Assembly: GCA_000724175.1 (NCBI GenBank)
Contig: JPGV01000006.1
Location: 28,630 to 92,629 of the forward strand
DNA from: [Candidatus Thermochlorobacteriaceae] bacterium GBChlB
GTDB lineage: Bacteria; Bacteroidota; Chlorobiia; Chlorobiales; Thermochlorobacteraceae
DNA: 64,000 nt
Direction: 5' to 3'
Below, in pieces: positions 45,443 through 56,132 of this stretch; position 1 is the first letter of the stretch; each line of letters opens with the position of its first letter. Below the pieces are notes generated by a model that was not told the DNA's origin, ran no database searches, and worked only from the letters and a program-made list of their open reading frames with translations. Position numbers and translations under genes: made by a program.

Positions 45443-46336
45443 TCAGTAGTGAAACTGCAAGGTGAGAATGTTCGCTGTGCCAAGTTGATTGGAGAACGGG
45501 ACAAAGGCGTAATCGAACTTGAATCCACTATATGCAATGCCCGCTCCCGCCGAAAAGTTGCGCGACGTGTTTCCAATCGAGTAGCCAACTCTGATGAAGA
45601 GCAATTCTCTAAATTGAAACTCGGTGCCGAGATTGATGTTTGTTTGGTCGGAAAAAATCGAGACGACATTCGCCTCGAGCAGCAGCGTACTTTCGAGCGA
45701 GGAAAATCCGAGCGCGTAGGCACCACCCAAACGCACCGCCGTTGGCAATCGGGACGACTGCGCTGCAAGGGCGCTCATACCGCCAAGATTCTGAACCGTC
45801 GCCGCCAGAGCGAGTTCCTTCGTTGCTTTGAATGATGCGGAGACATCGACCGCCGCGCCGAGCGCGTCATCGACAAAAATTTTCTCGTAGAGCAATTTTC
45901 CCGTCAGTGCCAACGCGAGATTGTCGGTAATGCTTCGGCTGTATGAAACGGCTGCGGCAACGTTTTGCGATGTGAAAACACCCAGCGGGTCAGTCGTTGG
46001 TGCGTTGCCGCGAATGGGAATATCGCTAACGGTGAACCAGGTGAGCGAGATGCCAACGGCGCTTTTGCCGAAATTAAAATTCGCCCCTGCAAAACTCGAT
46101 TGCGTGTCGAGTATCCAAAGGTTTTGGGAAAACATCACGCTTGATTTTTCGCCCGCGTTGAGCCGAGCGGCGTTGTAATAATTAGACGCTGCGCCCTCTG
46201 CCGAGGCAGTGCCTGTATTTGCCATCGATTGCTCACGCGCCGTTGCGCCGATGTTCAAAAACGATAAGCCTGTTTGGGCGAAGGCATACGGCACACAAAG
46301 CACCCACGCACAAAGGAAAGTGATTGGTCGCATCAA
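45443..46336 (-). CDS. PorV/PorQ (FadL-like) outer-membrane protein
   Basis: FLNIGATAREQSMA...YYNAA, QNLG, IRVGY and FDYAF motifs; signal peptide. Confidence 0.8.
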   Translation of the reverse strand: MMRPITFLCAWVLCVPYAFAQTGLSFLNIGATAREQSMANTGTASAEGAASNYYNAARLNAGEKSSVMFSQNLWILDTQSSFAGANFNFGKSAVGISLTWFTVSDIPIRGNAPTTDPLGVFTSQNVAAAVSYSRSITDNLALALTGKLLYEKIFVDDALGAAVDVSASFKATKELALAATVQNLGGMSALAAQSSRLPTAVRLGGAYALGFSSLESTLLLEANVVSIFSDQTNINLGTEFQFRELLFIRVGYSIGNTSRNFSAGAGIAYSGFKFDYAFVPFSNQLGTANILTLQFHY

Positions 46337-47357: not shown

Positions 47358-49352
47358 TTAAAAGGCAATTTTGAAGCCGAAATCGAGGATGCGTGTTGCG
47401 CCGAGTTGTTCTTGAAACGAGTTACCCAACAAAAAGTTGTATCGCGCGAACACAAGGAACCCAACAGCATCAGCGTTGAATCGAACGCCGCCACCCAGCG
47501 CAGGTGACACCGCCACGCCAATCCCTTGATAAGTTGCAGCGGCAGCCCTGACTTCCGCAAACGGCGCCGCCCAACTTGTCAGTTCGGCGTAAACTGACGC
47601 GCCAACCCCAGCTCCGAGCAAGACAGCGTCGGGCGTGAAACCAATTCCTGATAGACGTCCTGCAAGGGCTTCAGCATCTACACTAAACACGCTGTTGGGT
47701 CTATACTCAACGCCGCCGCGAAACGCCACGCCGTTGCCATACAACGCGGAAGGCGAGGGAGAAACGCTCATGCCCAAGAATCCAATCCATCGCCTTGGCA
47801 TTACGAGGTCTACGCTGAACGACTGACGCGCCGGTATGTTGTCGTCGTCTTTGGCAACCACATTGATGTCATTAAATCGAGATGTTAAGGCTACTGAAAA
47901 CCGGACAGCGCCGTTGTTGTCGGCGCGCGCAATGCTGTCGCCATTAACGAAAATCGTCGCGCCCGGCTCGGTTTCGCCGTTGATGACAATCACGCTGTTG
48001 GTTGCCACGCCGCGTTCAAGTTCGGGAGCGCGCAATGTGAGCCGAAGCCGTCTTGGCGAGCGTCCGATAACATCAATCGGGAGGACAAGTGGGATGCTCT
48101 CGAGTCCAATAGAGTCAATCGACGTGAGTTTCAAAAAATACCGTCCGGCATTAAGCGACGCCGTCGTCGATTCTGCGACATTGGTTGTCGTGAAAACGAG
48201 GGTATCGAACTCGTCCGTCGGTGAAATGTCCAGTCGAGTTTGCGCAGCAGTTGCTCGCCATCGGAACTGAATCGGATTTTCAACTGGCGATATAGGCGCG
48301 ACGAGCTCCGGTGGATTTGGCAGAGGGCGCGGTTGTTCGGGCGGCGTATTTTCGGCGATGCGTGTGCCGAAGTTTTCAGGCACAGCGACGGGCGCGTTAG
48401 GCAAGGGGGTTGCCTCTTCAAACGATGCGCCAGTTTTCAGCCCGCGCACTGAGGCGCCACCGCGGTGTATCGAGACCAGCGAGCGTCCTTTCGCATCAGA
48501 GCCAATTTTGCCCGAACTATTGGCGAGTGCGATTTCCGCAGCGCGCGTGCGCACCGAGAGCGGCGGTTGCTGGCGCGCTGCCGCCAGTTTTACATACAAA
48601 TCGCCCGAGAGCAACCCGACTTGCGGCGTTGGCGTGGGGCGTTGCTGAGGCTCTTCGGTTACGCCGTAAATCACGACAAGGGCGTTCTCACCGATTTGAA
48701 GCGCACTGCGGTCGAGAAATGTAACGGTCGAGCGCGAGGCCGCCGCAGTGTTGATTTTATGATACTCATAAACGGGTTGCGATAAGATGGCTTTTGACCA
48801 AGCGGTCTCCCACGGCGCGCGAGCGCGCACGTCGCGTTGAATTGCGGTAATAGTGCCATCGGGCGAAATTGGTGTATTGGTTTGTGTTGTTAGGCTGCGC
48901 TCCGTGCGCGGACTTAATCCGACGACCTCAATACGGCGATTTTGCGAGCGCCCGTCGTCGGTCGAGTTGTCGGCAATCGGTTGAGTGTCGCCGTAGCCTT
49001 TGGTGAACAATCGGTCAGCCGCAATGCCACGTTGAACTAAAAACGCTTTCACAGCGTCGGCACGCGCTTTCGAGAGCGCAAGGTTGATTTTCGGATTGCC
49101 TTGATTATCGGCATGTCCGCCGATTTCAATGTCGAGGTCGGGACGCGCAGCAAGGTAAGCAAGCAGTTTTTCAAATCGAGGATAACTTGCTGGGTCGATG
49201 GCAGCGCTGCCGCGTTTGAATGTGGCGTCTTTGAACACGAATTTTTTGCCCGGACTCAAATCGACTTCCTGTGCACGCACTGCGCTTGAGAAGACAGCAA
49301 CGAGACATATTGTGGAAAGCCATTTCATTGGCAGTAAAAAGGCAGTTTTCAT
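47358..49352 (-). CDS. OmpA_C + FecR-like + Ig-like + C-terminal beta-barrel protein
   Basis: Signal peptide (AVRA-QE); IEIGGHADNQG..NLALSKARADAV..QNRRIE; FecR-like TVTFLDRSALQIGENALVVI; GETEPGATIFVNG; terminal FGFKIAF; ATGA overlap with the kinase stop. Confidence 0.8.
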   Translation of the reverse strand: MKTAFLLPMKWLSTICLVAVFSSAVRAQEVDLSPGKKFVFKDATFKRGSAAIDPASYPRFEKLLAYLAARPDLDIEIGGHADNQGNPKINLALSKARADAVKAFLVQRGIAADRLFTKGYGDTQPIADNSTDDGRSQNRRIEVVGLSPRTERSLTTQTNTPISPDGTITAIQRDVRARAPWETAWSKAILSQPVYEYHKINTAAASRSTVTFLDRSALQIGENALVVIYGVTEEPQQRPTPTPQVGLLSGDLYVKLAAARQQPPLSVRTRAAEIALANSSGKIGSDAKGRSLVSIHRGGASVRGLKTGASFEEATPLPNAPVAVPENFGTRIAENTPPEQPRPLPNPPELVAPISPVENPIQFRWRATAAQTRLDISPTDEFDTLVFTTTNVAESTTASLNAGRYFLKLTSIDSIGLESIPLVLPIDVIGRSPRRLRLTLRAPELERGVATNSVIVINGETEPGATIFVNGDSIARADNNGAVRFSVALTSRFNDINVVAKDDDNIPARQSFSVDLVMPRRWIGFLGMSVSPSPSALYGNGVAFRGGVEYRPNSVFSVDAEALAGRLSGIGFTPDAVLLGAGVGASVYAELTSWAAPFAEVRAAAATYQGIGVAVSPALGGGVRFNADAVGFLVFARYNFLLGNSFQEQLGATRILDFGFKIAF

Positions 49353-51490
49353 TTTGGTAGAGTAAATCGAAAGCAAGACCCTTTGTAAAGTTCACTCTCA
49401 ACGCTGACCGTGCCACCATGTTTCTCCACGATTTCTTTCACAAATGCTAAGCCCAAGCCCGTTCCGATATTAGCGCGCACGCGGTCGTCGTCAACGGCGC
49501 GAAAAAATTTTGAAAAGAGTTTCTCTTTCGCCGACGCCGAAATGCCGAATCCTTCGTCCCGCACCGCCACTTCCATGCACTCTTGATGTTCAAGCATCTC
49601 CACATAAACAGTTTTGTTTGGCTCGGAATACTTGACGGCGTTTGAAAATAAATTCAGGACGACTTGCCCGATAAGTTCTGCGTCGCCCAGAATCGGCGTA
49701 GAATTGGACGGCAGATTTAACTTCACGGCGATATGTTTGGCATCGGCAAGCGGTCGATTGATTTCCACTGTTGTTGCAACGACGTCGTGCAATTTAAACG
49801 GCGCACGCTGAATATCAGCGCGTCCCGATTCGAGTCGGTTCAAATCAAGAAATTTGGTAACAATGTTTCCGAGTCGCTCCGACTGCTTGTAGATAATCTC
49901 GACAAACTCTCGCGTCTCTCTTGAAAGCTCGTTCTGGCTGTCCAGAATCAGCGAACTGAATCCGCTAATGGTGGCAAGCGGCGAGCGCAGTTCATGGGCG
50001 ACAATCGAGACCAACTCGGTTTTCATTCGATCCATGTCAACGTCTTTCGTCACATCGCGCAGCACGCCGAGCAGCGCAACCAACTCTCCCTCGCTCTCCA
50101 CGCGCACCACTGTGCCACGCAACACCGTCTCTCGCGCCTCGCCGACCAACCGCACCCGACATTCCACGGGCATGAGTGCTGCCTCCGACGCGAACGCCGA
50201 GTCGATGATGGCGCGAAGCTGCTCGTTAGCAATGAGCGTCTCAATCGGCTTCGGCTCGACATTCAAGTTCATTTTTGGCAGCGAAAACCACTTGGCGAAC
50301 AACGGATTGACAAGCACCGCCTGACGCGCTGAGTCAATGACAATCATGCCGTCGCCAGCTTGCTGCAACGCGGCATCGAGTTTATTGCGCTCGGCCACCA
50401 GCTTATTGACATTGATTTTTTGATAACGACCGAGCGTTTCGGCAACGTCGTTGTAGGCTTGAAAGACTGTATCAAATTCATCGCCGCGCGTCTCGGAAAA
50501 TCGAAAGTCGAATTCTTGCTTGGCGAAGCGGCGGGCAGCATCGACAAGTTGCGCAATCGGTTGATTGAGCCGCTTCGCCAAGAAAAGGCTCACAAGGCTG
50601 GCGGTTGCCGCGCCGATAAGCGAGCCGACAAGAACACGCCATTGCATTTCGCGCACGGAAAAATACGCAACGCGCTGCGGTTCCTCGACCACGATTGCCG
50701 CTCGAAATTGCGGGAGTGAAATCCATGTGCCGAGCATCGGCTCACCTGTAAAACCGACATACTCCTGCGAGACGCCAACAGGCTTCATCAGAAACACATC
50801 GTCCGATGAGCGCGCGTCGCTAAACAACCCTCGCCCGATGAGCGACTCGCGCCGTGCGGCAAGCGCACTGTCGGCATGAATGAATATCCTTACATCGCTG
50901 TCGAGCAAATACACACGGTCGCGCTGTCCAGAAAAGGTCTTCGCTGAAACGTCGCCAATCAGGTTGGCAAGCGCGCGCGGCTCGGGCTGCGTAAGCAGGT
51001 AGCCCGCATTTTCTCCGTTCAACTTCCACTTAACGCCGACCTGAAATTGTTCTCCGAGACTCACGACGCTTTCCAGCGAATCGAGTGCACGCTTAATCGA
51101 CAGCGGAAAACGACTTGGTAAGTCGGAACGACCAGTTTTGACAAAGGCATCGATGAATGCGCCATCGTTGTCATACACACCAATCGACCCTGCGGTCGAG
51201 TTATTGGCAAGCAGACTCGAGACCAAACTCGTCGCATCTGCCGGCGAGAGAGTGCGGTTATCGAGCAGTCGTGCCGCTTCCAAAAGCAGTCTCGTTGTTT
51301 CTTGAAGGCGCTGTTCCAACCGCGCAGCAACGCTATTGGCGGTGGATAGATACAGTTCACGGGAAAGATTTTTCAGCGTGTCTAAGTTGAGAACGGAGAG
51401 CGAGTAACCCACAAGCGCAAGCGGCAAGACAGCGACGAGCGTTAGAACGACAGCGAGTTTTGTCGCAAAGTTGAGCGACGGCAATTTCAT
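49349..51490 (-). CDS. membrane sensor histidine kinase (Cache-like periplasmic region, HAMP, PAS, HisKA, HATPase)
   Basis: Two TM segments, HAMP (PIAQL..DEF), PAS (DGMIVID..VNP), AHELRSPL, NAVKYS, DEGFG and GTGLGL. Confidence 0.92.
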   Translation of the reverse strand: MKLPSLNFATKLAVVLTLVAVLPLALVGYSLSVLNLDTLKNLSRELYLSTANSVAARLEQRLQETTRLLLEAARLLDNRTLSPADATSLVSSLLANNSTAGSIGVYDNDGAFIDAFVKTGRSDLPSRFPLSIKRALDSLESVVSLGEQFQVGVKWKLNGENAGYLLTQPEPRALANLIGDVSAKTFSGQRDRVYLLDSDVRIFIHADSALAARRESLIGRGLFSDARSSDDVFLMKPVGVSQEYVGFTGEPMLGTWISLPQFRAAIVVEEPQRVAYFSVREMQWRVLVGSLIGAATASLVSLFLAKRLNQPIAQLVDAARRFAKQEFDFRFSETRGDEFDTVFQAYNDVAETLGRYQKINVNKLVAERNKLDAALQQAGDGMIVIDSARQAVLVNPLFAKWFSLPKMNLNVEPKPIETLIANEQLRAIIDSAFASEAALMPVECRVRLVGEARETVLRGTVVRVESEGELVALLGVLRDVTKDVDMDRMKTELVSIVAHELRSPLATISGFSSLILDSQNELSRETREFVEIIYKQSERLGNIVTKFLDLNRLESGRADIQRAPFKLHDVVATTVEINRPLADAKHIAVKLNLPSNSTPILGDAELIGQVVLNLFSNAVKYSEPNKTVYVEMLEHQECMEVAVRDEGFGISASAKEKLFSKFFRAVDDDRVRANIGTGLGLAFVKEIVEKHGGTVSVESELYKGSCFRFTLPK

Positions 51491-51553
51491 AGACCTAACA
51501 AACGACGACAATAAACTGTAAACATAGCAACTTGTAAGTGGCTTGGCGGAAAA

Positions 51554-52135
51554 TTACGGATTTTGCCGTCGGTCTTGGCGCAGTTTCTTTCGGGCAGCGG
51601 GCGAAATGCCATGTGAGACTGTAATGTTGAACTCGTCTTTCAAATACTTCTCCACCTGTATCCAATCGCCGTTGGTTTTAACGGCTTTCGTCCATGCGCA
51701 CATCGTAATGAAGGTTTTATACCTGCCGTCTCTTTTTTTTCGTTCAGCCTCATATTGAGCAATGGCATCGCTCAACACTTTCGGAAGAGACTCAATAAAG
51801 GTCTTCCCACCGTCTTTGACGATGTAATCTGCCGCGCCGAGTTTCATCATTTCGACGGCAACAGACTCGTTCCCTTTGCCTGTTAGAACCACAAATGGCG
51901 GCACATCTTGCCGATGCGATAGCTTCCGAAGCACATCTAACCCCGTGAGCTTCGGAATGATGTAATCGAGCAACACCACTTGATAAGACACAGCACTAAG
52001 TTTTTCTAACGCCTCGATGCCATCGTGAGCAACATCAGGCACAAAGCCGTTTCGTTCCAGCAGCGTTTCAAGCATCTGTGAAAATGGCACATCGTCCTCT
52101 ACGATGAGTATGCGGCGCAGTTGAACATCGCTCAT
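51554..52135 (-). CDS. response regulator: REC plus short C-terminal CAW..SHGISP domain
   Basis: VEDD, phosphoacceptor LLDY, LTG and YIVK. Confidence 0.9.
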   Translation of the reverse strand: MSDVQLRRILIVEDDVPFSQMLETLLERNGFVPDVAHDGIEALEKLSAVSYQVVLLDYIIPKLTGLDVLRKLSHRQDVPPFVVLTGKGNESVAVEMMKLGAADYIVKDGGKTFIESLPKVLSDAIAQYEAERKKRDGRYKTFITMCAWTKAVKTNGDWIQVEKYLKDEFNITVSHGISPAARKKLRQDRRQNP

Positions 52136-52145
52136 TTGTTCTCCG

Positions 52146-52778
52146 TCATGTTGATTTGAGTTGTTTGCCGTAACGAGCCAACGCTTTCGGCGAAATGCCG
52201 TGGCTGATACTGACCCCGAAACGTTGCTTTAAGAAGTCCTCGATTTTTATCCACTCGTCGTTGAACTTTACATCGCCCGTCCATGCGCAAATGGTAACAA
52301 TCTCGGTGGGCGTCTCTACGGAGGAAGCGTTCTCTTTCGGTGGCGCCGACGCGTCGTGTTCAAGCGAGGTAAGCACTCGTTTTCGAACCGCGTCTTGCGC
52401 CATCGAGTCTTCAATTGCTCGCTCGAGCGCATCGACAAAAGCTTTTCCGGAATCTTTAACGATATAATCTGCAGCGCCGAGTTTCATTGCTTCGACTGCG
52501 ACGGCTTCGTTGCCGCTTCCAGTCATTAAAATCATCGGCGGCAAGTTCGGCTCGTTAGCTGCGTAGCGCAGGACTTCCAAACCGTCCATTGCAGGCATGA
52601 TGTAATCGACCAGCACGGCGTCGTAGTGAGAGAGTTTGCACATCTCTAAACCAGTCGCACCGTCAAATGCCGCGTCAACATTGTAGCCACGCCGTTGCAA
52701 CAGCATTTGCAAAAATTTTGAAAGACCTTCGTCGTCCTCAATGATGAGAACGCGTTTGCGTGCGTCATTGGTCGTCAT
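52146..52778 (-). CDS. response regulator paralog: REC plus CAW..SHGISP domain
   Basis: IEDD, LVDY, MTG and YIVK; ATG 52778. Confidence 0.9.
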   Translation of the reverse strand: MTTNDARKRVLIIEDDEGLSKFLQMLLQRRGYNVDAAFDGATGLEMCKLSHYDAVLVDYIMPAMDGLEVLRYAANEPNLPPMILMTGSGNEAVAVEAMKLGAADYIVKDSGKAFVDALERAIEDSMAQDAVRKRVLTSLEHDASAPPKENASSVETPTEIVTICAWTGDVKFNDEWIKIEDFLKQRFGVSISHGISPKALARYGKQLKST

Positions 52779-54068: not shown

Positions 54069-56132
54069 TCATTGTCCCAAGCGGTAACCGATGCGCGCAA
54101 CGGCTCTGACGCGAAACGTGTCGCGCTGTCGAACTCGTGAAAGCCGTGCGGTGCCTTGTTGCCGCGTATCGGCAGCGATATTGACGATAATCGCGCGCGC
54201 CTGTCGAAGCAGGTCAATCTCGGTTTTGTTGAGTTCGAGCGTAATCTCGCTGCGCGTTGTGCCGTTGCTCTCGCCCGTAGCGGTAACAGGCGCAGGCGAA
54301 ATGCTCGCAGGAAAATTATTTCTCGGCAGAGTAAATGCTTGCCGTTGCGCCGCATCGACGAACAAAACACGGCGATTGGCATCTAAAAAGGTCAACCGAA
54401 ACGTCGTGTTGAGCGGAATGCCGTTCTCGATGCGCAAGTTGAGTGCAACGCTCTGCGCGTCTTGCAAATCAGGCGGATTGTTGAACGGCGCTGTGTCGCG
54501 CACGCCGAAGGCATTGAGATTGAACTGAAACGGAATGAGAAAGCGCAGCCCAACAGAAACCGTGCTGGTGTCGGTAACGGTTCCGAACACGCGATTCGGA
54601 TTAAGTGCTGCTGTGCCGCGCGTTGTTATCGTAGTCGGCAAACTTGTAACGAATTGAGAGACATTGCTGTTCGTTGCGTCCAAGCGAAGCGGCGTAACCG
54701 CGTTGGGCGCAAGGTCAATGGAAATCAGTGCATTGTTTCGCAACAAGTCAATCGATTGGCGCGTGCGCGAGTTCTGCGCGCTGAAACGCGGATTGGCACG
54801 AATGGTAAAGCCCACACCATTGCGAAAACTAAACTCAATTTCGGGGAAGAGTTGTCCATTCAGCGTATCGACGCGGCTGAAATTTGTCGTGAGCGAGTCA
54901 AGCGAAAAATCCAAACTAAGCGGACGATTTTGCGAGGTATTCCAAACGACGCCTTCCGCTCTCGATGCTGCAAAGCGATTGGTCGTCGTGTAAATAATCA
55001 GAAACTCTGTGCTGAGGTCAACCCGAATAAAGTCTCGTGCCGAATTGACGCTCACAGTTGTTTCATATTCCGTCGCCGTATCGCCGACGGGTCTGAACGT
55101 CCAGCCCGCCAGCGAGGGCGAGACAATGGTCGTCGATTGCAATGCCGGCAATTGACTTTGCGCTTGAAAGACCGTCGAGCCCTGCGTCAATCCCGCCAAA
55201 CGCACCTGTGCCGAGCCGTTGAGCGCAATAGGATTGACAAAGCGCAGCGAGAGGCTACCCTGCTTAATCGTCGCCGAGCGCAAGCGTTCCAAGTTACCGC
55301 CAACGGCTCGAACCGTGCCGGTCTCGACAAAGGTTTGCGCGTCGAACCGCACTTCCGCCGCAGTGTAGGTTAAAACATCGGTTGGCTCAATTTGCAGCCG
55401 CAACTGATTGTTGAGGTTCACTGAAACGCCTGTTTGCGCGGGAAGTTGTCCGTCGACAATCTGCGCTGCGAGCCGATTTGTAAAAACGCCCGAAAAGAGA
55501 ACGGAGTCGCGCAGCGTCGCGCCCGGCGCGAGCGAGGCAATCGTGATACTGCCCAAGACAGCATTGCGCGTTACATCGCGCAGTTCAATGCGGAGATTTT
55601 CAAATCGAATGCCTGTATTGTTTGTCGCCACAAGCCGAATACCACCGCCCGTTACGGTTACAGAGCGGATATTTTCGTCCAGCGCAAATGAAAACGTGGT
55701 CGAGACGATGTTTGAAAATGTTGGCAGGCTCACGCTGTTGCCTTGTGGCAGCGCAATGCCCGAAGCAGAGGCAATCTGTCCAAGCGTTTGCACTGCTTGC
55801 GCTTGAAAGCGTGGAATCTTCAGGCGGTTGACCGCTTTGGTTCGCGCCGTATCGCTGATGGAAATCGTGAGCGAATCTCCAATGCGAAACGAATTTTGAA
55901 ATGTGGTGTCATAAAAATACGCTACTGTGCCATTGGGCGTTACGGTCGTTGCTGTCGTGTCTAATTTATCGAGCAACGATTCGGCGGTGTAGCTGGCATC
56001 GACAAGCGGAAGCGCGGCGTCAATATCCCAAACGGGCGTTACTGGCTGCTCAAGGCGGCAACTCGATACGGCGATAAAGAAGAGCAAGGGCAGCAATCGA
56101 GCAGATGTATTCGGATTCAGAGGCGCGTTCAC
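54069..56132 (-). CDS. large beta-rich hypothetical lipoprotein
   Basis: Hydrophobic leader with lipobox-like AVSS-C; Thr/Ser/Asn-rich beta-strand pattern. Confidence 0.75.
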   Translation of the reverse strand: MNAPLNPNTSARLLPLLFFIAVSSCRLEQPVTPVWDIDAALPLVDASYTAESLLDKLDTTATTVTPNGTVAYFYDTTFQNSFRIGDSLTISISDTARTKAVNRLKIPRFQAQAVQTLGQIASASGIALPQGNSVSLPTFSNIVSTTFSFALDENIRSVTVTGGGIRLVATNNTGIRFENLRIELRDVTRNAVLGSITIASLAPGATLRDSVLFSGVFTNRLAAQIVDGQLPAQTGVSVNLNNQLRLQIEPTDVLTYTAAEVRFDAQTFVETGTVRAVGGNLERLRSATIKQGSLSLRFVNPIALNGSAQVRLAGLTQGSTVFQAQSQLPALQSTTIVSPSLAGWTFRPVGDTATEYETTVSVNSARDFIRVDLSTEFLIIYTTTNRFAASRAEGVVWNTSQNRPLSLDFSLDSLTTNFSRVDTLNGQLFPEIEFSFRNGVGFTIRANPRFSAQNSRTRQSIDLLRNNALISIDLAPNAVTPLRLDATNSNVSQFVTSLPTTITTRGTAALNPNRVFGTVTDTSTVSVGLRFLIPFQFNLNAFGVRDTAPFNNPPDLQDAQSVALNLRIENGIPLNTTFRLTFLDANRRVLFVDAAQRQAFTLPRNNFPASISPAPVTATGESNGTTRSEITLELNKTEIDLLRQARAIIVNIAADTRQQGTARLSRVRQRDTFRVRAVARIGYRLGQ

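Follow-up and report, generated by a model that had tools for sequence, protein, structure and literature searches.

Co-inheritance of an OmpA-FecR envelope protein and a dCache kinase in distant bacteria points to an uncharacterized form of envelope monitoring

The DNA analyzed here, a stretch of 64,000 nucleotides (nt) from [Candidatus Thermochlorobacteriaceae] bacterium GBChlB that we call the window, contains a four-gene block at 47358-52778 (positions are in window numbering) encoding two response regulators (RR1 and RR2), a sensor histidine kinase (P0002), and an envelope protein (P0001). P0001 combines a peptidoglycan-binding OmpA_C domain, a FecR-type domain, and an outer-membrane barrel, and proteins of its kind are linked to one subfamily of dCache sensor domains. 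This co-inheritance in distant bacteria points to envelope monitoring of a kind not yet characterized. We consider it fairly probable that kinase and envelope protein together make up a sensing module of two proteins, with P0001 as an accessory co-sensor and peptidoglycan engagement setting its grip on the kinase.

Architecture of the envelope protein

The four genes are real, and so is the domain order of P0001. An earlier note on this DNA had read, from the letters alone, a signal peptide, OmpA_C, a FecR region, a Pro-rich linker, Ig-like segments, and a barrel ending in Phe; Pfam, an AlphaFold2 (AF2) model, and structural alignment bear out this order:

47358..49352, minus strand: envelope protein P0001, 664 amino acids (aa), barrel ending in Phe (Pfam, AF2, structural alignment)
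49272..49352, minus strand: cleavable signal peptide, residues 1-27 (sequence and alignments; cleavage site inferred)
48912..49247, minus strand: OmpA_C peptidoglycan-binding domain, about residues 36-147 (Pfam, TagL match)
48318..48854, minus strand: FecR-type beta domain, corresponding to the CJM subdomain of PupR only, about residues 167-345 (Pfam, structural alignment)
48066..48308, minus strand: Fn3-like beta-sandwich after a conserved Pro-rich hinge, about residues 349-429 (AF2)
47805..48038, minus strand: Ig-like domain, about residues 439-516 (AF2, Pfam match in an orthologue)
47361..47798, minus strand: 8-stranded outer-membrane beta-barrel resembling NspA, OprF, and OmpA, about residues 519-664 (AF2, structural alignment)

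Pfam places OmpA at residues 44-139 (E 2.7e-23) and FecR at residues 199-298 (E 1.2e-6, above the cut-off); the OmpA-type models of NCBIfam all fall below cut-off on P0001. The AF2 model, built on a 12-row alignment, has a mean predicted local distance difference test score (pLDDT) of 83 and a predicted template modeling score (pTM) of 0.49, with the domains confident and their mutual placement unfixed. Two small domains in it are all-beta and its C-terminus has eight strands, and P0001 has no transmembrane (TM) helix besides the signal peptide. When we aligned the domains against 48,161 PDB representatives, the N-terminal domain matched the peptidoglycan-binding domain of TagL (Z 18.9, root-mean-square deviation [rmsd] 1.5, 112 residues aligned) and the middle domain matched PupR's CCSSD, its C-terminal domain for cell-surface signaling (6ovm_R residues 111-241; Z 15.4, rmsd 2.3, 130 aligned). 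The C-terminus resembles the barrels of NspA (Z 17.2, rmsd 3.1, 143 aligned), OprF (Z 17.0, rmsd 1.9, 122 aligned), and OmpA (Z 16.6). Model and structural matches thus both predict the FecR fold and the barrel first proposed from sequence. Foldseek with the whole model returned OmpA_C rows only.

Asp82 and Arg97, which we take to be the canonical peptidoglycan-binding positions, are intact in the OmpA_C domain, and Gln28, the predicted mature N-terminus, is nearly invariant among orthologues. The Fn3 and Ig labels rest on the all-beta model together with Pfam matches in relatives, namely Glucodextran_B (E 1e-10) in the orthologue of genome G013 and fn3 (E 0.0016) in a paralogue. Some database records choose an alternative start, Met9.

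Within the window's order, 7 of 121 genomes searched encode the full-length architecture; none of the 105 belonging to that order's largest family does. It is also present in an Ignavibacteria-labelled record and in metagenome proteins. A metagenome scan gave 79 loci with plain OmpA domains, none of them full-length, and a search of the class with the full-length profile found none in 251 genomes, a weak negative with only 4 candidates scored per genome. The recurrence of the architecture in the order and in other lineages rules out chance fusion or misassembly.

Two familiar identities can also be set aside. Like OmpA and OprF, P0001 carries an 8-stranded barrel and an OmpA_C domain with the Asp/Arg pair in one chain; unlike them, it has the reverse domain order and three inserted domains, with about 370 residues between OmpA_C and barrel. 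The reversed order and inserted domains rule out a canonical OmpA. With the sigma regulators FecR, PupR, and FoxR it shares the CJM beta-solenoid fold, as the sections cited here describe it (PMC7186176, PMC12036975). For PupR, the same sections assign residues 110-238 to the CJM subdomain and 250-324, with helices, to the STN subdomain, and report that PupR binds its transducer only with both (PMC7186176). P0001 has no STN: the PupR match extends no further than chain residue 241, beyond which the model shows an all-beta domain. Unlike FecR and PupR, it begins with a signal peptide and OmpA_C and has neither a cytoplasmic anti-sigma domain nor a membrane helix. The Gly-Thr pair at which FecR undergoes autoproteolysis is given as G181-T182 in the cited part of the source (PMC12036975); P0001 has no Gly-Thr at what we infer to be the equivalent place, and the pair is found in 2 of 24 aligned rows. 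As the earlier note had observed, no extracytoplasmic function (ECF) sigma factor or TonB-dependent transducer lies beside the block, and Pfam detected neither an ECF sigma nor a TonB receptor among the 8 window proteins scanned. With the anti-sigma domain, membrane helix, STN, and sigma and transducer neighbors all missing, a canonical FecR anti-sigma protein is ruled out.

Linkage to a dCache kinase

The gene next to that of P0001 encodes the kinase:

49349..51490, minus strand: sensor histidine kinase P0002, 713 aa, with TM helix, dCache, TM helix, HAMP, PAS, HisKA (His499), and HATPase_c
50639..51394, minus strand: its periplasmic dCache domain, of a rare subfamily found together with OmpA-FecR-Fn3 proteins

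The kinase stop overlaps the envelope-gene start by 4 nt (ATGA at 49352-49349). Both this overlap and the shared orientation of the four genes, noted previously, were confirmed by the open reading frames (ORFs). In genomes G006 and G001 a gap of 14-25 nt takes the place of the overlap. Pfam recognizes HAMP, PAS, HisKA, and HATPase_c in the kinase, the catalytic motifs of which are intact; dCache_1 (E 5.4e-6) is below cut-off. The periplasmic region is modeled as a dCache fold (pLDDT 78) similar to McpX (Z 15.9, rmsd 3.7, 221 aligned) and Tlp1 (Z 15.8). Among NCBIfam models, all below cut-off, PnpS/WalK/PhoR are the most similar. The partners of such kinases are usually OmpR-type.

We counted linkage over ten barrel-type orthologues with visible genomic context, a count that omits the barrel-type representatives P0044, P0048, P0095, P0098, P0131, and P0142. 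A kinase with this type of dCache domain lies beside the orthologue in 6 of the 10 genomes; these six fall into two lineages with reversed gene order and differing cytoplasmic parts. The kinase is directly upstream of the envelope gene in G000 (the window's genome), G001, and G006. In G526, G576, and G677, a hybrid kinase (HAMP-HisKA-HATPase-REC-Hpt) stands directly downstream of the barrel-type gene, about 45-50 nt off, the G677 locus being spread over two contigs. The periplasmic domain of the hybrid kinase is homologous to the window's dCache (24% identity over 272 columns, E 2e-21). Moreover, when the window's dCache domain alone served as query, its single match was the hybrid kinase in G526, G576, and G677 (E 1e-16 to 3e-21), and no match appeared in G003 or G179, two genomes with paralogous FecR proteins. 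At the level of sequence comparison, this search is non-circular support for the linkage.

An exchangeable membrane anchor

A sensor-side search of 401 genomes returned 7 places in 4 genomes, one of them the G576 place again. An OmpA-FecR-Fn3 gene adjoins 4 of the 7 places, the G576 place included, and all 4 genomes encode such proteins. G739, G747, and G787, which belong to one genus, have two dCache kinases each, and in all three an OmpA-FecR-Fn3 protein comes after one of the kinases; it lacks Ig domain and barrel and has hydrophobic helices at its end. These genomes carry three OmpA-FecR-TM genes apiece, 3 of the 9 following a dCache kinase. The wall-binding domain is common to both anchor types and the Fn3-like domain to all variants of the family; the Ig-like domain is missing in the inner-membrane variants.

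A quick tree built from 29 FecR-Fn3 cores joins the window protein and its two orthologues to four TM-type rows (Shimodaira-Hasegawa-like approximate likelihood ratio test [SH-aLRT] 100), and this cluster is nested within barrel-type diversity; six later-found TM genes are outside the tree. The anchor was therefore swapped between the two membranes with no change of kinase family. Judged from these relationships, what is conserved is a kinase together with a wall-tethered module of OmpA, FecR, and Fn3, on which the anchor can be exchanged.

This result bears on a reading of P0001 as an envelope ruler, in which the barrel-Ig-Fn3 stalk sets the depth of FecR and the kinase reads the distance from outer membrane through wall to inner membrane. 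A single chain indeed carries the outer-membrane barrel, two spacer domains, FecR, and the peptidoglycan-binding domain; the domain count is constant across the full-length barrel-type proteins aligned; and the barrel type is the widespread form, with 15 of the 19 OmpA-bearing rows of the tree. However, the inner-membrane sisters keep the same kinase family with neither Ig domain nor barrel, and the triad paralogues described below have neither barrel nor OmpA domain. An exchangeable anchor thus weakens any model with the barrel or outer-membrane spacing as the signal, and we regard a ruler as unlikely. The earlier note had pictured an outer-membrane-anchored, wall-tethered FecR domain signaling envelope spacing or damage to the kinase. 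Genomic linkage favors the wall-tethered FecR and its kinase, but outer-membrane anchoring proved not to be required, and spacing survives as one possibility that the inner-membrane relatives count against.

Evidence against the module and a tether alternative

Several observations weigh against a kinase-envelope protein module. No kinase adjoins four of the ten barrel-type orthologues (in G012, G013, G015, and G017), and in these genomes, which are 97-99% complete, the sensor profile found HAMP-level matches only. The envelope protein can therefore persist without this kinase. Homologues were expected to be linked to kinases, and by way of a shared periplasmic domain they are, in two lineages independent of each other; these orphans are the exception. 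In G739, G747, and G787 alike, the kinase nearest the window's (44-45% identity) has no FecR neighbor, and 6 of the 9 OmpA-FecR-TM genes are not next to a dCache kinase. The linked genomes represent three lineages only, and their counts are not independent. Lastly, a frameshift in the assembly splits the G006 kinase.

The G006 kinase (L021:7689-9823) is broken near a short A/T stretch, giving pieces of 173 and 558 aa; an assembly error or a pseudogene may account for this. P0166 is an intact protein closely similar to it.

The orphans (L023-L026: G013, G015, G012, G017) have Trp in the peptidoglycan-binding motif and form separate branches in the tree. They may do a different job, and the lack of the kinase may go together with a changed hold on the wall. 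The OmpA_C domain of the G012 orphan is without the peptidoglycan-binding Asp.

Orphans in 4 of 10 genomes, and the dispersal of kinase and OmpA-FecR-TM genes in three others, would suit a structural tether or regulon member, that is, an inverted OmpA-like link between outer membrane and wall that would share the kinase's transcript as a target of the pathway and whose FecR domain would bind another envelope protein. A Sinorhizobium meliloti FecR-domain protein is described, in the part of the source cited, as just such a target of a CHASE2 cyclase pathway, dispensable for signal perception (PMC5498481). However, a target should not track a periplasmic domain while the cytoplasmic part and gene order change, and FecR-Fn3 proteins with differing anchors all stand beside Cache-type receptors, an adenylate cyclase included. 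We consider a tether quite improbable.

The wider FecR-Fn3-Ig family

Paralogous FecR-Fn3-Ig proteins have neither OmpA domain nor barrel. At E 1e-8, a FecR-Fn3-Ig profile matched 109 of 301 genomes from the phylum, and among the best 30 loci a kinase is directly upstream in all 26 that are OmpA-less. The arrangement at 18 of 20 wider loci is a triad of kinase, helical-FecR-Fn3-Ig protein of about 590 aa, and PKD-repeat protein of about 1,580 aa; at the other two, a FecR protein of about 770 aa follows either a HAMP kinase or an adenylate cyclase of the dCache-HAMP type. Thirteen more loci (three re-draws) again had kinase and FecR genes adjacent. A tree built on 48 kinase cores makes 23 triad kinases the sister group of the window kinase and its two orthologues (95/91; midpoint root), and profile comparison aligns the two groups from the second TM helix onward but not in the periplasmic domain. 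No triad-type FecR gene was found in G000, G001, or G006, and eight other members of the family have one, as if triad and window module had replaced one another.

The triad cassette (L027-L031, L064-L083; e.g., G012:C1:1795700-1804400) is spread over many families of the phylum. It is far commoner than the window module, nearly always comes without a response regulator, and looks uncharacterized. At L078 (G179:C121), FecR-Ig (about 775 aa) and PKD-repeat proteins follow a dCache-HAMP adenylate/guanylate cyclase; with a cyclase in place of the kinase, the output of the cassette appears swappable. A BLUF-domain gene lies directly upstream of the triad kinase (L028, L029) in G010, by Pfam match, and twice in G008, by sequence likeness. 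G008 also has a partial duplicate of the kinase N-terminus. Elsewhere in the window's genome (G000:C38:20156-22036), the gene for a secreted protein of 245 aa, FecR-only and containing a Gly-Thr pair, lies beside one for a secreted beta-rich protein, and short FecR genes like it occur in many genomes of the phylum.

Proposed mechanism

The folds place the barrel in the outer membrane and the Ig, Fn3, FecR, and OmpA_C domains in the periplasm. P0001 would be exported and its barrel inserted in the outer membrane, mainly as an anchor. Ig and Fn3 would reach into the periplasm and OmpA_C would sit on peptidoglycan, keeping the FecR/CJM domain close to the wall and within touch of the dCache domain of the inner-membrane kinase. 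Because it is common to every kinase-linked variant, FecR-Fn3 is the likely contact for the sensor domain. Most likely, the co-sensor would lock the kinase in a single state until its engagement of the wall changes through damage, remodelling, or detachment, or until the co-sensor itself is cleaved or displaced. Direct contact, direction of control, and nature of the signal are what we infer in this scheme. A complex prediction with kinase residues 33-284 and envelope-protein residues 158-432 (score 0.00, mark 0.32) counts neither way.

A different route would start outside the cell, with a ligand on the barrel loops and a relay via FecR to the kinase, as proposed for NsrA and CyaK of S. meliloti. 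NsrA, too, has a FecR domain. In the sections cited, NsrA, a barrel protein of the outer membrane, is needed for perception of the signal via inner-membrane cyclases (PMC7529298, PMC13001267), and FecR domains pass on outer-membrane signals in cell-surface signaling (PMC7186176). The barrel of P0001, however, is a small one whose loops are short in the model, and no other part of the protein is so poorly conserved. Two independent domains separate it from FecR, kinase-linked sister proteins do without it, and the STN subdomain that PupR needs for transducer binding is missing. A surface receptor is therefore very unlikely.

If the contact of our proposed co-sensor with the kinase is real, it would extend the FecR fold from anti-sigma signaling to direct histidine-kinase control and would give relatives of green sulfur bacteria, and Ignavibacteria, a cell-wall monitoring pathway. 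It is doubtful, though conceivable, that the pair is a two-protein envelope gauge of no described precedent, with kinase activity reporting the geometry or attachment of envelope layers. Were that true, the inner-membrane sisters would take the measure of the wall from its opposite face, and Cache-type receptors throughout the phylum would have in this family a general "plug" with a FecR fold. The locus is a clean test case in which the partner can be named: one dCache subfamily tracks the co-sensor through order reversal and output change, and natural outer-membrane-anchored, inner-membrane-anchored, unanchored, and orphan versions exist.

Comparison with known systems

Our searches of an open-access library turned up nothing published on OmpA-FecR-barrel proteins or on the dCache partner. 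The general kind, a FecR protein beside a kinase or cyclase, is already in print, its mechanism left open in the parts of the papers cited (PMC5192318, PMC9239204). The pair is best read as a variant, anchored in the outer membrane, of the modules that combine a peptidoglycan-binder-FecR protein with a sensor (COG4254/BiofilmReg). In the cited part of its description, the BiofilmReg operon of Burkholderia and relatives comprises a response regulator, a LysM-FecR protein (COG4254), and a CHASE2 histidine kinase (PMC5192318). As there, a secreted peptidoglycan binder precedes FecR and is linked to a PAS-HisKA-HATPase kinase, with no ECF sigma or TonB transducer. Set against the same account, the differences are an OmpA_C domain in place of LysM (no LysM match at E 0.1), the outer-membrane barrel at the end of P0001, a dCache and HAMP sensor in place of CHASE2 (no CHASE2 match in Pfam), and a receiver with a small unnamed domain in place of the CreB/OmpR-type regulator.

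A Campylobacterota cluster, as far as the cited text describes it, groups a CHASE2 adenylate cyclase, a phosphodiesterase, a FecR-domain protein of the outer membrane, and a TPR protein (PMC9239204). It resembles our locus in the conservation of a FecR-domain outer-membrane protein beside an inner-membrane receptor; it differs in its cyclase and CHASE2 domain where we find a kinase and dCache, and that text, which is bioinformatic only, describes no OmpA_C. Similarly, NsrA with CyaK and CyaD1/D2 of S. meliloti couples an outer-membrane barrel protein to an inner-membrane receptor enzyme. The cited sections give NsrA a barrel region at residues 600-1200, much larger than the P0001 barrel, have it sense an outside protein, and name CHASE2 cyclases as its partners (PMC7529298, PMC13001267). 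In the YfiBNR system of Pseudomonas aeruginosa, as presented in the part cited, an outer-membrane-anchored OmpA/Pal-like protein likewise steers an inner-membrane HAMP enzyme by periplasmic contacts; however, YfiB is a lipoprotein without FecR fold or barrel that works via a separate soluble repressor, YfiR, and the output is c-di-GMP (PMC3375315). P0001, unlike YfiB, has no Cys after the signal peptide, the block has no extra gene, and the output is a kinase. In its way of working the pair resembles the Burkholderia and Campylobacterota modules, and less closely NsrA-CyaK and YfiBNR; going by defining domains, it belongs to none of the four.

The two regulators

52146..52778, minus strand: RR1 (P0004), 210 aa, receiver with Asp58, Thr86, and Lys108 plus a C-terminal domain of about 45 residues
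51554..52135, minus strand: RR2 (P0003), 193 aa, receiver with Asp57, Thr85, and Lys107 plus the same domain
52170-52304 (RR1) and 51581-51715 (RR2), minus strand: the C-terminal domain of about 45 residues, of no Pfam family

Pfam finds Response_reg alone in both regulators, and all NCBIfam models are below cut-off. The description of the regulators as "output-less" did not hold, for both carry the conserved C-terminal domain besides intact receivers. This domain occurs in 15 of 21 related genomes and also on a PAS protein of the window's genome (G000:C9:122032-122643). A structure search found it on CHASE3, GAF, PAS, MASE1, and REC proteins, and standing alone in other phyla. One relative has four cysteines in it, versus one in the RR1 and RR2 copies, which suggests a degenerate zinc-binding module. 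The cysteines are mostly lost in the window's lineage.

RR1 is the counterpart of the single regulator at the pgk-rhomboid site in G001, G006, and G008. RR2 is a local extra copy, a paralogue 44% identical to RR1 that is not at this site in those genomes. In G008 (13% contamination), a regulator stands between pgk and the rhomboid gene without kinase or envelope gene. No regulator of the RR1/RR2 type flanks the linked pairs of G526, G576, G739, G747, or G787, and one is near only 1 of 18 triads, divergently placed. The two regulators, which the earlier note had counted into the system, are thus probably not a fixed part of the sensing module. RR1 remains a candidate phosphoryl acceptor of the kinase because it may have come with the block, and we put its chances in that role at about even.

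Genomic neighborhood

The four minus-strand ORFs have pgk and a rhomboid gene on either side. The intergenic gaps are 51 nt between pgk and the block, 10 nt between RR1 and RR2, and 63 nt before the kinase ATG. Scans of the region for promoters (5 vs. 3.4) and terminators (7 vs. 10.3) were no better than shuffles, and co-transcription is therefore surmised from gene spacing only. In all four other relatives examined (G003, G004, G005, and G012), pgk adjoins the rhomboid gene without the block, which argues that kinase and envelope gene were gained or lost jointly. The base composition of the block (GC 0.49-0.56 vs. 0.51 for the genome) does not mark it as foreign.

Also neighboring the block, downstream of the rhomboid gene, is a gene for a PorV-like barrel protein (45443-46336; Pfam E 1.2e-8). 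It is present at the empty site of G004 and G012 too, and hence lies outside the block. Upstream of pgk, at 54069-56132, a 687-aa predicted lipoprotein without Pfam match at E 0.1 is encoded; it keeps the same position in G001 and G006.

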